From Pirellulales bacterium (GTDB lineage: Bacteria; Planctomycetota; Planctomycetia; Pirellulales; PALSA-1355), in the NCBI GenBank assembly GCA_963733035.1, contig CAVTBU010000005.1:1088001-1152000 (forward strand): a DNA stretch of 64,000 nt, read 5' to 3'. Positions 1-7,114 of this stretch are shown here, in pieces; the stretch's first letter is position 1, and every line of letters starts with the position of its first letter. Made by a program: the position numbers and the translations under genes. The notes under the pieces were generated by a model. It saw nothing but the letters and a program-made list of their open reading frames with translations, was not told the origin of the DNA and did not search any database.

Positions 1-233
1 TCGGGGAGCAACTCAGCCAGCCCATCGGGCGGAGTTGTGGGGAGCAGCCGAAGAACGTCGGCCAGGTAACGGAACGGGTCAATTCCATCCCAAGGGGACG
101 CAGACATTTTCGATCACCGGCGGGCGGCGGTTGACGGTACGATGCGCGGCATGCCTCGCGCGGCTCGCACGCTTCTGGGCGGATAGGTTTATCGTATCCG
201 CAATCGGGCCAGCGACCGACCTCCGGTCGGCGC

Positions 234-273
234 AAAAAACAGCGGCCCGGTCCAACTTGGGACCGGGCCGCTG
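234..273 (-). terminator. Rho-independent terminator of the Cys-rich repeat gene
   Basis: Perfect 14-bp stem CAGCGGCCCGGTCC/GGACCGGGCCGCTG (240-273) with a T6 tract on the minus strand (A6 at 234-239), 60 nt after the stop at 334. Confidence 0.85.
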
Positions 274-333
274 GTGTTGACCAGACCTTCCTGCTGAGTA
301 CGACTCAGAAGAAGACTACACGCTTACTTTCCT

Positions 334-2655
334 TTAGCCGCCACAGCCGCAGCTCGGTTCGGCCGCACAACTGGGCTCGCAAGCCACTGGGCAGCAGACC
401 GTTACCGGAACTTGCTTGCAGACCACTTTCGGCACGCAGCGAGTGACCGTGTAAGCAACCTTCTTGGGCACACAACGAGTGACGTTGACCGTCTTCGTGT
501 AGTGCACTGGCTTGCATACCGTGTAGGGCACTTGCTTGCAGCACTTCTCAGCGACCATGTGGCAGACCTTGTAGGTGCAAGTCTTGACCCGCTTCTCGGG
601 CACCATGTGGCACACCGTGTAGTTGCAGGTCTTGACCCGCTTCTCGGCGACCATGTGGCACACCTTGTACTGGCAGGTCTTGACCCGCTTCTCGGGCACC
701 ATGTGGCACACCTTGTAGGTGCAAGTCTTGACGCGCTTCTCGGGCACCATGTGGCACACCGTGTAGTTGCAAGTCTTGACTCGCTTCTCGGGCACCATGT
801 GGCACACCGTGTAGTTGCAGGTCTTGACCCGCTTCTCGGGCACCATGTGGCAGACCTTGTACTGGCAGGTCTTCACGCGTTGCTCGGGAACCATGCGGCA
901 GACCGTGTACTGGCAAGTCTTGACCCGCTTCTCGGGCACCATGTGGCAGACCGTGTAGTTGCAAGTCTTGACCCGCTTCTCGGGCACCATGTGGCACACC
1001 TTGTACTGGCAGGTCTTGACGCGCTTCTCGGGCACCATGTGGCACACCGTGTAGTTGCAAGTCTTGACTCGCTTCTCGGGCACCATGTGGCACACCGTGT
1101 AGTTGCAGGTCTTGACCCGCTTCTCGGCGACCATGTGGCAGACCGTGTAGTTGCAGGTCTTGACCCGCTTCTCGGCGACCATGTGGCACACCTTATAGCA
1201 GCAGGTCTTGACGCGCTTCTCGGGCACCATGTGGCAGACCGTATAGTTGCAGGTCTTGACGCGCTTCTCGGGCACCATGCGGCACACCGTGTAGGGCACC
1301 TTCTTGACCTGAGTTTCACGAACGTACTTCACGCAGTTGATGGTCTTGGTGCGAGTTTCGGGAACCCAAACCCGCTTGCAAACCTTGACCGGCGGGCACT
1401 GGACGCATTCCGTCTTGCAGCAGCCGGGCTTGTAGACGCAGCAGCAGCGGCAAGGATCATAGCACCAGGTGCCACAGCCTTGCACGACACGCTTGACCAC
1501 GGGACCCGGGCACTCGGTGACCTGGGTTTCCCAGCGACCACAGCACACTTGCACGCACTTCGTATAGTGAACCGGCTTGCAGACCGTGCAGCACACTTCG
1601 CGCTCGCGAGTCTCTTGAACTGGCTTGCAAACGGTGTAGCAGATCTCGCGGGTCTTGGTTTCATAGACCGGCTTGCACACGGTGTAGCAGATCTCGCGGG
1701 TCTTGGTTTCCCAGACCGGCTTGCACACGGTGTAGCAGATCTCACGAGTCTTCGTCTCGTAGACCGGCTTGCAGACCGTGTAGCAAATTTCCCGGGTCTT
1801 CGTCTCGTAGACCGGCTTGCAGACCGTGTAGCAGATCTCACGAGTCTTCGTCTCGTAGACCGGCTTGCAAACGGTGTAGCAGATCTCGCGGGTCTTGGTT
1901 TCCCAGACCGGCTTGCAGACCGTGTAGCAGATCTCGCGAGTCTTCGTCTCGTAGACCGGCTTGCACACGGTGTAGCAGATCTCGCGGGTCTTGGTCTCAT
2001 AGACCGGCTTGCAGACCGTGTAGCAAATGTTGCGGGTCTTGGTTTCCCAGACCGGCTTGCACACGGTGTAGCAGATCTCGCGAGTCTTCGTCTCGTACAC
2101 TGGCTTGCAGACCGTGTAGCAGATCTCGCGGGTCTTGGTTTCATAGACCGGCTTGCAAACCGTGTAGCAGATCTCGCGGGTCTTGGTTTCCCAGACCGGT
2201 TTGCACACGGTGTAGCAGATCTCGCGAGTCTTGGTTTCCCAGACCGGCTTGCACACGGTGTAGCAGGTCTCGCGAGTCTTCGTCTCGTAGACCGGCTTGC
2301 AGACCGTGTAGCAAATTTCCCGGGTCTTGGTTTCCCAAACCGGCTTGCAGACCGTGTACTCGCAATTGCGGTAGGCGGTCTCGTTCACGTATTTGACGCA
2401 ATTGACCGTCTTCTGTTCGCAGACCGGCTCGTAGACCGTCTTGTAGCAGGTGTAATCCTGCTTTTCGTAGACGACCTGTTTGCAGGTCCGCATGACTGTG
2501 TGGCACTGCTGCTTGCATGCGGTATATGCGCATGGCTCGCAGCAGGTGGCACAGCATCGGTACCGGGCCGCGCCGCAGTACCCCGCTTGAGCCGCGTCTG
2601 CAAACGCGACTAGCAGGATGACCGCAACAATCGGCACACCCAACAATGCTCTCAT
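334..2655 (-). CDS. Secreted Cys-rich YTV-repeat protein (773 aa), planctomycete cell-envelope type
   Basis: ATG at 2655 preceded by GAAGGAGG; signal peptide MRALLGVPIVAVILLVAFADAAQA; two arrays of 16-aa YTVC.. repeats; about 107 Cys by manual count. Confidence 0.9.
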   Translation of the reverse strand: MRALLGVPIVAVILLVAFADAAQAGYCGAARYRCCATCCEPCAYTACKQQCHTVMRTCKQVVYEKQDYTCYKTVYEPVCEQKTVNCVKYVNETAYRNCEYTVCKPVWETKTREICYTVCKPVYETKTRETCYTVCKPVWETKTREICYTVCKPVWETKTREICYTVCKPVYETKTREICYTVCKPVYETKTREICYTVCKPVWETKTRNICYTVCKPVYETKTREICYTVCKPVYETKTREICYTVCKPVWETKTREICYTVCKPVYETKTREICYTVCKPVYETKTREICYTVCKPVYETKTREICYTVCKPVWETKTREICYTVCKPVYETKTREICYTVCKPVQETREREVCCTVCKPVHYTKCVQVCCGRWETQVTECPGPVVKRVVQGCGTWCYDPCRCCCVYKPGCCKTECVQCPPVKVCKRVWVPETRTKTINCVKYVRETQVKKVPYTVCRMVPEKRVKTCNYTVCHMVPEKRVKTCCYKVCHMVAEKRVKTCNYTVCHMVAEKRVKTCNYTVCHMVPEKRVKTCNYTVCHMVPEKRVKTCQYKVCHMVPEKRVKTCNYTVCHMVPEKRVKTCQYTVCRMVPEQRVKTCQYKVCHMVPEKRVKTCNYTVCHMVPEKRVKTCNYTVCHMVPEKRVKTCTYKVCHMVPEKRVKTCQYKVCHMVAEKRVKTCNYTVCHMVPEKRVKTCTYKVCHMVAEKCCKQVPYTVCKPVHYTKTVNVTRCVPKKVAYTVTRCVPKVVCKQVPVTVCCPVACEPSCAAEPSCGCGG
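526..1293 (-). repeat. Tandem array B: 16 x 48 bp encoding Y(T/K)VCHMV(P/A)EKRVKTC(N/Q/T)
   Basis: 768 bp = 16 units, counted in both protein and DNA. Confidence 0.95.
1591..2358 (-). repeat. Tandem array A: 16 x 48 bp encoding YTVCKPV(W/Y)ETKTREIC
   Basis: 768 bp = 16 units, counted in both protein and DNA. Confidence 0.95.
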
Positions 2656-3087
2656 GGCTTTCGTGCCTCCTTCGTGGGACGACTCAGGATGGGTCTGGTC
2701 AGGCGAGGTTTTCCCGCTATTAGCTCTATTCGGCCAGCGCACTCCATGTGCGTTAGCTGGGTAACCCAAACTTCACCATCTACCGCATTCCACGGGATGA
2801 GTAGAGTTGGCGCATTTGTTTACCCACCTTCCCCGAACGCTTCATTGGCATCGTCAATCTAGGAAGACAGCTTGACCTAGATATGCTGCGAAGCCTTTTC
2901 ATTCCCGGTAGTTGGGTAAGGCTCACCGGATTGTGCGTTCAAAAGGGGTGCTAGCGGACGTGTCGGTTTCGCTAGCGGTGTCCCACCCGCCCGATTGCGC
3001 CGGGAGTCTTGCCCGAGGGGCGGCCGTGACCTAAAGTACAATCCCCCCTTGGCGGCGCAACGGATCGTCCTTTGGCACACGTCTAGC

Positions 3088-3771
3088 ATGAGCGACCGCA
3101 AACCCAGACCACCGGCCGCCCCGGCGGCCGACTCGCCGGTGCCGAAGGCCGTCGTTAGCCGATTGAGTCTGTACCTGCGCGAGCTCCAGCATCTAGTGCG
3201 CGACGGCCACCAGCGGACCAGCAGCAGCCAACTTGGTCGTCTGTTAGGGTTTAGCGACGCCCAGGTACGCAAGGACTTGGCCTATTTTGGGCACTTCGGC
3301 CACCCCGGAATTGGCTACCGTTGTGACGACCTGATCAAAGCCATCCGCAAGATCCTGGGAACCGATCGCGACTGGCCGGTTGCGATGATCGGTACCGGCA
3401 ACCTGGGACGTGCGCTGTTGGGCTACAAGGGCTTTAGCCACCAGGGCTTTCGCATCGCGGCCGCGTTCGACGTCGACCCCCAGCGCGTGGGCGCCACGAT
3501 CGAAGGGGTGCGCGTGTTTCACCTCGACCAGCTCGCCGAAGTCGTCGCGGACCACAAAATCAAGCTCGGCATGATTGCCGTTCCGGCTACCGCGGCCCAG
3601 AACGTGGCCGATCGCCTGGTGGCCGCCGGCATCGAGGGGATCGTGAACTTCGCGCCGGTGACGATCAGCTTGCCGGAAAACGTGCGCCAGGTGGGGGTCG
3701 ACCTGGCCATCGAGCTCGAACAGCTTTCGTTCGCCGTGGTCAGCCGCGGCGCCAGCGACACCGCGGACTAA
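3088..3771 (+). CDS. rex: Redox-sensing transcriptional repressor Rex
   Basis: VPKAVVSRLSLYLR, SSSQL..QVRKDLAYFGHFG..GIGY winged helix; IGTGNLGRAL Rossmann motif; GIVNFAP. Confidence 0.95.
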   Translation: MSDRKPRPPAAPAADSPVPKAVVSRLSLYLRELQHLVRDGHQRTSSSQLGRLLGFSDAQVRKDLAYFGHFGHPGIGYRCDDLIKAIRKILGTDRDWPVAMIGTGNLGRALLGYKGFSHQGFRIAAAFDVDPQRVGATIEGVRVFHLDQLAEVVADHKIKLGMIAVPATAAQNVADRLVAAGIEGIVNFAPVTISLPENVRQVGVDLAIELEQLSFAVVSRGASDTAD

Positions 3772-5686: not shown

Positions 5687-7114
5687 CTACTTCCGTCGCC
5701 GTCGAATCCCGCAGCCCACCAGGCCGAGGCCGGCGACGGCCATCAGCAGCGCCGAGCCCGGTTCGGGGACGACGTTGATGGCGCTGTTGTCGTAGGCCGT
5801 GGCCAACAGGTCCGCGTTCAACGACAGGTTGGCGCCGATATCGAGCACGAGCTGTCCGCCGAGCGTGGCGGCAAGGTGGTTGATGTTGACGTAGCCGTGC
5901 TGGCCGCTGCCGGCGTCGACATAGGTACTCAAGTTGCTGAGCTCAAAGCTTGTGGCGGGCAGATCGAGTACGACGTCCGGCTGCGTCAGTGAGATGGGCA
6001 GCGTGAACCCGAGCGTTCCCGACTGCAGGGCGGCGAACACGTCGTCAAAATCGACGTTGGTGTTCGCCTCGTGCAACACCTGGAACGAGAAGGGCAGATC
6101 GACGTTCGGCAGCGTGAGCGACTCGTTCAAATCGATCAGCGACACCGTGCCGTCGCTCAACAGACCATCGACCACGTTGTCCTCGTTGACCGTGAAGTTG
6201 ATCAGCCCGATGATCGAAATATCGGCGGCGATGTCGATGCTGCCGGTAATCGTGCCCATGATGTCGGCCACCAGGTTGCCCGAAACGGTCGTGGAGACGA
6301 GATCGATGCCGCCAGCCGACAGGTCGAGCGTTGGGCCCGCGCCCGGCACGGGGTGCGCGCCATCGACAAAGTTGCCCGAAAGCGGGTTCGTCAAGGCAAC
6401 CGGCGTGGTGGCGCCCAACGTCAGGCCTTGCAAGCTGACGTTCTGGGTCGGCGAAAAGTTCACCTGCACGTTGGAGGAGTTTTTCACCCGCAGGTCGGCA
6501 CTGAGGACGCTCGTATTGACCACGTTCGGAATCGTCACGTCATTGGGAATGGCCGCGTTAATCGAGCCCGACACGGTCGCCGTGGCGGTAATGGGGTTGT
6601 TCACCGACACATTGGTATTTTGAGCGGTGGCGCCGTTGAGAATACCGGTGCTGGACGGATCGTCCCACTTGCCGTCGGAACCGGGCACCCCGCCATCGAG
6701 CACGCCCACCACGCCGTTGGCCAGGTTGTCGCCAGCGGTAACATCGAACGAACCACTGACGGGGCTGCTGAAGGGGGTCGAGGGGATGTTGATGCCGATC
6801 GTGGTCGGAGTGATGGCGATCGGAGTCGAGGCGGTGTTGTTGTTCGACGTGCTGTTGGGGAAGAAATTCAGAAAGCCGCCGTCGTTGATTGTTTGGATAT
6901 CGAGATCCGTGACGTTGAGCATTCCCTGCGTTTGAATGGTGCCGGCGGTGTTCTGGCTCTTCACGTCGATGCCGATATCTCCGCCGAGCGTGCCAGAGAA
7001 ACCGGTTCCACCAGTGAGGTTCATGGTGTGCGTAGCGGTTTGCGCGTGCGCCGTGCTCGCTGCCGCCAGCCCCGCGCACAACAGCGCGGGCAGCAGCAAT
7101 CTTTTGCGTTTCAT
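5687..7114 (-). CDS. PEP-CTERM sorting-domain surface protein (475 aa)
   Basis: Signal peptide ending AHA-Q; S/T/N/G-rich body; C-terminal VPEPGSALLMAVAGLGLVGCGIRRRRK; AAGGAG RBS. Confidence 0.92.
   Translation of the reverse strand: MKRKRLLLPALLCAGLAAASTAHAQTATHTMNLTGGTGFSGTLGGDIGIDVKSQNTAGTIQTQGMLNVTDLDIQTINDGGFLNFFPNSTSNNNTASTPIAITPTTIGINIPSTPFSSPVSGSFDVTAGDNLANGVVGVLDGGVPGSDGKWDDPSSTGILNGATAQNTNVSVNNPITATATVSGSINAAIPNDVTIPNVVNTSVLSADLRVKNSSNVQVNFSPTQNVSLQGLTLGATTPVALTNPLSGNFVDGAHPVPGAGPTLDLSAGGIDLVSTTVSGNLVADIMGTITGSIDIAADISIIGLINFTVNEDNVVDGLLSDGTVSLIDLNESLTLPNVDLPFSFQVLHEANTNVDFDDVFAALQSGTLGFTLPISLTQPDVVLDLPATSFELSNLSTYVDAGSGQHGYVNINHLAATLGGQLVLDIGANLSLNADLLATAYDNSAINVVPEPGSALLMAVAGLGLVGCGIRRRRK

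Follow-up and report, generated by a model that had tools for sequence, protein, structure and literature searches.

Near one end of the window analyzed here, a 64,000 nt stretch of a Pirellulales bacterium (assembly GCA_963733035.1, contig CAVTBU010000005.1, positions 1,088,001 to 1,152,000 of the forward strand), lies a gene on the minus strand (window positions 334 to 2655) for a cysteine-rich protein with two tandem repeat arrays. The arrays, here called A and B, differ in sequence, and each consists of 16 units of 16 amino acids. Why should two dissimilar arrays on one chain have the same number of units? A preliminary description of this DNA had suggested that A and B are the outgoing and returning strands of one antiparallel ribbon stitched by disulfides. 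Our analysis indicates that the gene product is probably a Sec-secreted wall protein of the YTV family, in which both arrays pair as a single giant two-stranded antiparallel β-hairpin. The equal count of 16 is not due to chance, because arm lengths are matched throughout the family and array A covaries with array B at the level of single units.

Translation confirmed the coordinates, unit consensus, copy numbers, linker length and flanking motifs of the preliminary description. Array A, the outgoing arm (1591 to 2358; all features of this gene lie on the minus strand), has the consensus YTVCKPV[W/Y]ETKTREIC and consists of 15 near-identical units and a degenerate 16th, YTVCKPVQETREREVC. Array B, the returning arm (526 to 1293), is built from units of the form Y[T/K]VCHMVPEKRVKTCN, with the consensus Y[T/K]VCHMV[P/A]EKRVKTC[N/Q/T/C] and a degenerate final unit; in the register derived below, A unit m has its partner in B unit 17-m. 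Tandem Repeats Finder reported the arrays at a period of 48 with 15.4 copies and 86% and 89% matches. Between them lies a conserved linker of 99 amino acids (1294 to 1590), in the following called the tip domain, a predicted nested hairpin with its turn near CRCC that is present in single copy and constitutes a hallmark of the family. The motifs KTVNCVKYV and KTINCVKYV precede the arrays, and TVCKPVHYTK follows each of them. The arms extend beyond the arrays into three degenerate N-arm units (2359 to 2505), including the N-anchor motif VVYEKQDYTCYKTVYE and KTVNCVKYV, and into degenerate C-arm units (391 to 525; delineated by the anchors and by AlphaFold2), including TVCKPVHYTK and the C-anchor motif YTVTRCVP.

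Judged by its sequence, the protein is an ordinary YTV family member. Pfam PF07639 (YTV) matched in 22 stretches with an E-value of 2.6e-229 and 741.6 bits against a cut-off of 21. We found 182 homologs. Those inspected all showed the same order, from a signal peptide over a KPVxET-type N-array, the linker and a +MVPE-type C-array to a C-terminal YTVTRCVP. The linker was single-copy and of constant length among them, and could be aligned without gaps between Cys-rich and Cys-poor subfamilies. A search of the whole library with the linker alone gave 74 matches, most of them too fragmentary to help in counting arm units.

We measured the two arms of each protein between anchors located with hidden Markov models, the N-arm from the N-anchor motif to the start of the linker and the C-arm from the end of the linker to the C-anchor motif. 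In a broad set of 216 linker-bearing proteins (91 genome open reading frames (ORFs) and 125 database proteins), both anchors scored at least 20 bits in 62. The N-arm exceeded the C-arm by 23–26 residues in 54 of these 62 proteins, mostly by exactly 25, at N-arm lengths from 110 to 304 residues. All eight outliers were examined. The anchors were misplaced by one unit in L059 and P0085, and boundaries were off in L083, L088 and P0014, which belong to a shorter-linker subfamily; the other three are considered below. Closer relatives came from 78 loci with 47–92% identity in species-representative genomes, comprising Pirellulales, Planctomycetaceae and Thermoguttaceae metagenome-assembled genomes. 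Both anchors reached at least 19 bits in 51 ORFs, the remainder being cut at contig ends, frameshifted or containing a partial linker. Here the arm difference was exactly 25 residues in 41 of 51 cases, whose N-arms come in 23 different lengths between 176 and 544 residues, corresponding to 8–31 units per arm. The window protein itself conforms, with arms of 304 and 279 residues, as do relatives at 86–88% identity with 16/16 (L107) or 17/17 units (L106, L112). In one subgroup (L110, L111, L139, L141, L145, L148, L158, L168, L177 and L178) the tip domain has 59–78 residues instead of 88 and is very rich in Cys, Pro and Ala, and the arm-length rule is still exact. The preliminary description had reasoned that uncorrelated copy numbers in homologs would speak against paired arms; the arm lengths are tightly correlated.

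The matching extends to irregular units. After locating repeat units by a chain of position-specific scoring matrices, we found several proteins in which units of 14 amino acids interrupt the 16-residue periodicity at mirrored positions. In L028 (367–2928), super-repeats of 76 amino acids (16, 14, 16, 16 and 14) run through both arms with 19 units each, and 18 of 18 unit spacings are the same when read outward from the tip. The C-terminal end of this homolog is apparently frameshifted. The sole 14-residue unit is the 7th from the tip in either arm of L031, and the 4th in either arm of L054/55. Such units occupy positions 2, 4, 6 and 8 from the tip in both arms of P0004 and positions 2, 4 and 5 in both arms of P0003, and two further subfamilies (L078, L079) have 14-residue units in both arms.

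To define the register, we compared alignment columns of 30 paralogs with equal arm lengths, pairing column a-x with column b+x+off, where off is an offset. The normalized mutual information peaked at off = 0 (0.479) and was 0.28–0.40 at other offsets, with higher values solely at nearby even offsets. The window protein carries its own signature of the same register. Position 8 of array A is W in units 1, 3, 4, 7, 10 and 14 and Y elsewhere. B unit 17-m has K at its position 2 wherever the mirrored A unit has W8, and T wherever that unit has Y8, in 15 of 15 units (6 W-K, 9 Y-T and no mixed pairs; Fisher p = 0.0002), and the association is gone at shifts of ±16, 32 or 48 residues, that is, 1–3 units. 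Across 75 other proteins the same test gave an odds ratio (OR) of 7.2 (p = 1.4e-12) at shift 0 and of 1.3–1.5 when shifted; in the 41 relatives obeying the arm rule, the OR was 52, against 2.3–4.5 in shifted controls. Because the tested proteins are related, these controls carry more weight than the p-values. At register a+b, A8 stands opposite B4, and B2 is therefore the diagonal same-face neighbor of A8, so the A8-B2 pairs would fit an aromatic-cation contact. The window protein thus combines a single tip domain between its arrays, an arm difference of 25 and register-specific covariation.

At the DNA level, W units of array A and most Y units also differ at the next two synonymous codons, GAA ACC versus GAG ACG, and A units 5, 8 and 15 are Y units with the W-type codon background. 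These differences suggest two A-unit subtypes that were spread by duplication or conversion. The repeats further leave several other frames open, for instance a 733-aa ORF on the opposite strand (window 412–2613, plus strand). Many metagenome homologs (P0006, P0016, P0017, P0024, P0026 and P0035) switch between such frames and show stretches of the LLHGLQAGLRDQD type, a pattern suggestive of frameshift errors within repeats.

Structure prediction with AlphaFold2 returned the same topology. For a paralog type of 453 amino acids (alignment of 68 sequences), the model consists of one strand at residues 57–225, four short strands in the linker and one strand at 266–434, in register i+j = 491 = a+b. 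The predicted local distance difference test score (pLDDT) was 75–85 near the tip and base and 41–52 in mid-arm. For the window protein (48 sequences), strands 50–120/685–755 and 318–382/423–487 were paired with pLDDT of 70–84, and the linker strands 386–392/413–419 and 396–400/405–409 continue the ladder; all these strands, in arms and linker, obey i+j = 805 = a+b. Through the outermost of these pairs, the degenerate N-arm units (50–120) face the degenerate C-terminal ones (685–755; pLDDT 71–84 in this region). A helix was placed at residues 8–16, within the signal peptide. The supported register puts NCVKY opposite VHYTK at both ends of the ribbon, and sets the tryptophan of GRW against that of VWVP. 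It thereby agrees with the fold-back that had been proposed from the flanking motifs, and the short linker strands with their common i+j sum match the nesting noticed in the linker sequence. Neither array folded alone in these predictions; both models pair the arrays as one hairpin. The claim of outgoing and returning antiparallel strands is accordingly upheld by arm lengths, mirrored short units, covariation and predicted register. An extended two-stranded rod is hence the predicted form of the window protein, in AlphaFold2 models of low predicted template modeling score (pTM).

Several observations weigh against this interpretation. Both models have low global confidence, with a mean pLDDT of 65.9 and a pTM of 0.22 for the 453-aa paralog and of 52.3 and 0.24 for the window protein. 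In the middle part of the latter, formed by the near-identical repeats, pLDDT fell to ~30, the strands showed several breaks and one segment had slipped by 16 residues. Because the underlying alignments overlap, the AlphaFold2 and mutual-information results are not mutually independent. No solved structure provides a precedent for an isolated two-stranded ribbon of such length, the best matches in the PDB reaching a template modeling (TM) score of at most 0.16. The copy numbers of 16/16 rest on the assembly, and public sequencing runs share at most 0.18 of the sampled words from window positions 200–2900. In the broad set, anchors were too weak in 154 of the 216 proteins, and related sequences are not independent samples. 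The arm rule is broken in P0028 and P0092, whose C-arms are short by 32 residues, and in P0001 with ~9 A units and ~1 B unit; one short unit in P0128 is uncompensated, leaving a difference of 2 residues. Ten of the 51 closer relatives break it as well (L175, L165, L161, L124, L142, L113, L120, L133, L117 and L125). These ten are off by about whole units and their contig names are all of the k141, k99, NODE or opera type, while the rule is kept in 23 of 23 records named ‘contig_N’ or ‘chromosome’ and in 18 of 28 others. Because all exceptions carry short-read-style names, we read them as possible repeat mis-assemblies of short-read data, a reading based on contig naming. A paired duplication history of A and B units left no trace, as DNA distances between A units and mirrored B units were not correlated (Mantel r = 0.12, p = 0.28) and the parallel order was not significant either. 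Lastly, covariation does not distinguish intramolecular from swapped intermolecular A:B pairing.

The cysteines bear on how such ribbons may be held together. The supported register sets A-C4 against B-P8, A-C16 against B-V12, B-C4 against A-W/Y8 and B-C15 against A-R13. A cysteine stands opposite another cysteine for 3 of 45 A-side cysteines in the window protein and for 99 of 1576 in all genome ORFs. On these counts, in-register cross-strand disulfides were rejected; the maximum of Cys-Cys pairs (394 of 1551) occurs at offset +3, which is not the covariation register. Some paralogs have no cysteine in one arm (L023) or almost none anywhere, so the hairpin does not depend on cross-strand disulfides. 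Since cysteines almost never face each other in this register, cross-links between chains are more likely, and the cysteines are more likely used there and in the terminal caps. The disulfides of the preliminary description are thus disfavored where it put them across the strands, whereas its alternative of inter-chain bonds is the more likely one. With ideal strand geometry, three of the four cysteines in a unit pair would share a face and the fourth would lie on the opposite one. Both faces of the ribbon are mixed charged and polar, without a single apolar face. Each strand carries one proline per 16 residues, and the prolines A6 and B8 would come in pairs that share a parity class.

How do the alternatives fare? 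The one that survives best, although we regard it as rather unlikely, takes the hairpin as a mere protomer and lets ribbons associate through their edges or their faces to build a larger β-assembly, be it a sheet, a multilayer or a giant β-barrel tube. Both ribbon edges would otherwise be free, either face carries cysteines that have no partner inside the ribbon, and the sole structures retrieved by Foldseek from the PDB were long hairpins from the tail tube of a phage (phi29 tail 6qz9, E = 7.8e-4) and from pore-forming toxins (lysenin, aerolysin and anthrax PA pores), all of them within oligomeric barrels. Their low TM-scores, the lack of an apolar face, the recurrent prolines on each strand and the strongly basic character of the protein nevertheless argue against such an assembly. 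A homodimer prediction with two copies of residues 26–440 of the 453-aa paralog returned a score of 0.00 without a verdict.

We consider it improbable that A and B pair between molecules, as a swapped dimer or a head-to-tail polymer yielding filaments or a net without a closed hairpin. Length matching and mirrored covariation are equally expected under such swapped pairing, and according to passages of published studies, the YTV family makes insoluble wall material resistant to sodium dodecyl sulfate (SDS) (PMC8567305, PMC5287468). Yet within the tip domain, short nested strands continue the i+j register of the arms up to a tight turn, both AlphaFold2 monomer models closed the hairpin, and the arm rule is undisturbed whether the tip has 88 or 59–65 residues. 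Finally, that the arrays fold separately, as a Cys-rich β-solenoid of the insect antifreeze type or a stack of local hairpins with an equal count left by history, is very improbable: short Cys-containing repeats of 12–16 amino acids do form solenoids in other proteins and AlphaFold2 confidence in the repeat core is low, but arms match to the residue over 23 arm lengths, 14-residue units are mirrored, covariation between the arrays is register-specific, neither model contains a solenoid, and paralogs with Cys-free arms or hardly any cysteine cannot need intra-repeat disulfides for their fold.

We return to the closed hairpin and to the remaining parts of the gene. The reading frame (window 334–2769) is open throughout and encodes 811 amino acids from a TTG. 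The likely true start is the ATG at 2655, giving 773 codons (stop codon 334–336; supported by ORF, translation and the Pfam match) and a product that begins with a putative signal peptide, MRALLGVPIVAVILLVAFADAAQA (2584–2655). Read from its letters, this hydrophobic N-terminus ends in a probable signal-peptidase-I site between AQA and G and is without a lipobox, in line with the secretion of YTV proteins. Next follows an N-terminal Cys-rich cap, GYCGAARYRCCATCCEPCAYTACKQQ (2506–2583; low pLDDT), which would lie at the open end of the hairpin, and the AlphaFold2 register suggests that the C-terminal Cys-rich tail, PVACEPSCAAEPSCGCGG (337–390), adjoins it. The mature protein has 748 residues, among them 122 V, 107 C (14%, matching the high Cys content of the family), 100 T and 91 K. 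Leu and Phe are absent, Asp and Ser occur just twice each, and the residues K+R (137) outnumber D+E (63), which makes the protein strongly basic.

A profile of the tip domain matched 54 of 401 Planctomycetota genomes. These are all 52 genomes sampled from the class of the window (by family, f2 8/8, f3 2/2, f4 1/1, f5 40/40, f6 1/1), the genome of the window itself and a single one of the 348 others, with a weak match containing stops. Apart from this weak match, the tip domain is confined in this sample to the Planctomycetia, as are YTV proteins. Most genomes in the class have 1–4 linker-bearing YTV copies. The second paralog in the window's own genome (contig C6, L009:1141–2547) is Cys-poor; its N-arm comprises ~8 units, and its C-terminus is extended by a stretch rich in Pro and Thr.

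Two neighboring genes were noted. A gene for a Rex-type redox-sensing repressor (window 2995–3771, plus strand) adjoins the Cys-rich wall gene in divergent orientation. A Rex homolog with 48% identity occupies the same position at L023; otherwise this neighbor was not seen among loci L001–L105, whose flanks are short. Further away (5687–7114, minus strand) lies the gene for a secreted protein of 475 amino acids that is rich in Thr, Asn and Gly and has a PEP-CTERM-like sorting signal, VPEPGSALLMAVAGLGLVGCGIRRRRK, at its C-terminus.

How does this architecture relate to known systems? In streptococcal antigen I/II, the repeats of the A-region and P-region pair antiparallel with a tip domain between them, and matched repeat numbers set the length of the stalk. 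The YTV protein resembles it in having two different arrays on one chain, a tip domain and antiparallel, length-matched arms. However, the antigen I/II stalk is formed by an α-helix and a polyproline helix, is much shorter and is not known to be related to YTV proteins in sequence. In SMC/Rad50-type proteins, the chain doubles back at a hinge and its N- and C-terminal halves pair along a very long arm, for which their lengths must match; these proteins are α-helical, cytoplasmic and equipped with ATPase heads, and the design principle alone is in common. The best structural matches, lysenin (5ec5), aerolysin, anthrax PA (3j9c) and phi29 (6qz9), are extended two-stranded hairpins. Their strands comprise ~25–60 residues, occur only in oligomeric barrels and have an apolar face, in contrast to ~333 residues and two charged faces in the YTV model. 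A β-barrel stem of the pore-forming-toxin type was rejected, given TM-scores of at most 0.16 and mixed or charged residues on both faces. In Chlamydia, which belongs to a related superphylum, the Cys-rich envelope proteins OmcA and OmcB and MOMP form a disulfide-cross-linked complex that provides envelope rigidity, the same mode of action as proposed here; to our knowledge it has no repeat-hairpin architecture, and we expect no homology to YTV proteins.

The closest counterparts are the YTV wall proteins of R. baltica, G. obscuriglobus and T. immobilis, which share the profile, secretion, Cys content and class-restricted distribution. Passages of published studies describe YTV proteins as cysteine-rich and confined to Planctomycetales/Planctomycetia, and report that they were identified in walls prepared from Rhodopirellula baltica, Gemmata obscuriglobus and Tuwongella immobilis (PMC8567305, PMC12673574, PMC3343278, PMC5287468). 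They were recovered in other species from SDS-boiled, SDS-resistant wall material (PMC8567305, PMC5287468), and the essential gene set of Planctopirus limnophila, as excerpted, includes a YTV protein (PMC10632474). These passages cover motif, Cys content and wall location, to which the predicted two-array hairpin is added here. No structural description of YTV proteins, and no account of two arrays, matched arms or a hairpin in them, was found in the portions of the literature covered by our searches, and models may already sit in predicted-structure databases. The matched-arm β-hairpin, for which the computational support is strong, thus appears to be undescribed in print. The excerpts place YTV proteins in the wall (PMC8567305, PMC12673574, PMC5287468), from which we infer a wall location of the window protein as well, and the ‘stalk or fibre’ role in the preliminary description is without support.

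From these data, the following course can be envisaged. The chain would be exported by Sec and then fold back at the conserved 99-aa tip domain. Arrays A and B would pair residue by residue, A unit m against B unit 17-m, into an antiparallel β-ribbon with ~333 residues per arm, bringing the Cys-rich N- and C-terminal caps together at the open end. At ~0.33 nm per residue, the rod would be ~110 nm long if straight; the 100–120 nm of the preliminary description likewise presuppose a straight ribbon. The number of repeat units would fix this length, and therefore both arms would have to gain or lose units together. Cysteines would probably form disulfides between neighboring molecules, joining the rods into an SDS-resistant protein wall.

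The composition and cohesion of the protein-rich, SDS-resistant planctomycete wall is an old open question, and YTV proteins are known major components of it. If the model is true, the YTV protein would be by far the longest two-stranded β-hairpin known and a natural, genetically tunable nano-rod, and arm equality could serve as a check for mis-assembled repeats in metagenomes. More tentatively, YTV hairpins may act as length-defined struts of a covalent fabric, the stress-bearing layer of the Planctomycetia wall. In such a fabric the number of units would set the length of the struts and with it the mesh size, with 8–31 units per arm in the relatives corresponding to ~60–190 nm. Disulfides between cysteines that have no partner within their own ribbon would connect the struts, and the diagonal W-K and Y-T pairs might serve as a zip code keeping near-identical repeats in register. 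The hairpin model thereby gives a testable picture of how the planctomycete protein wall may be constructed.

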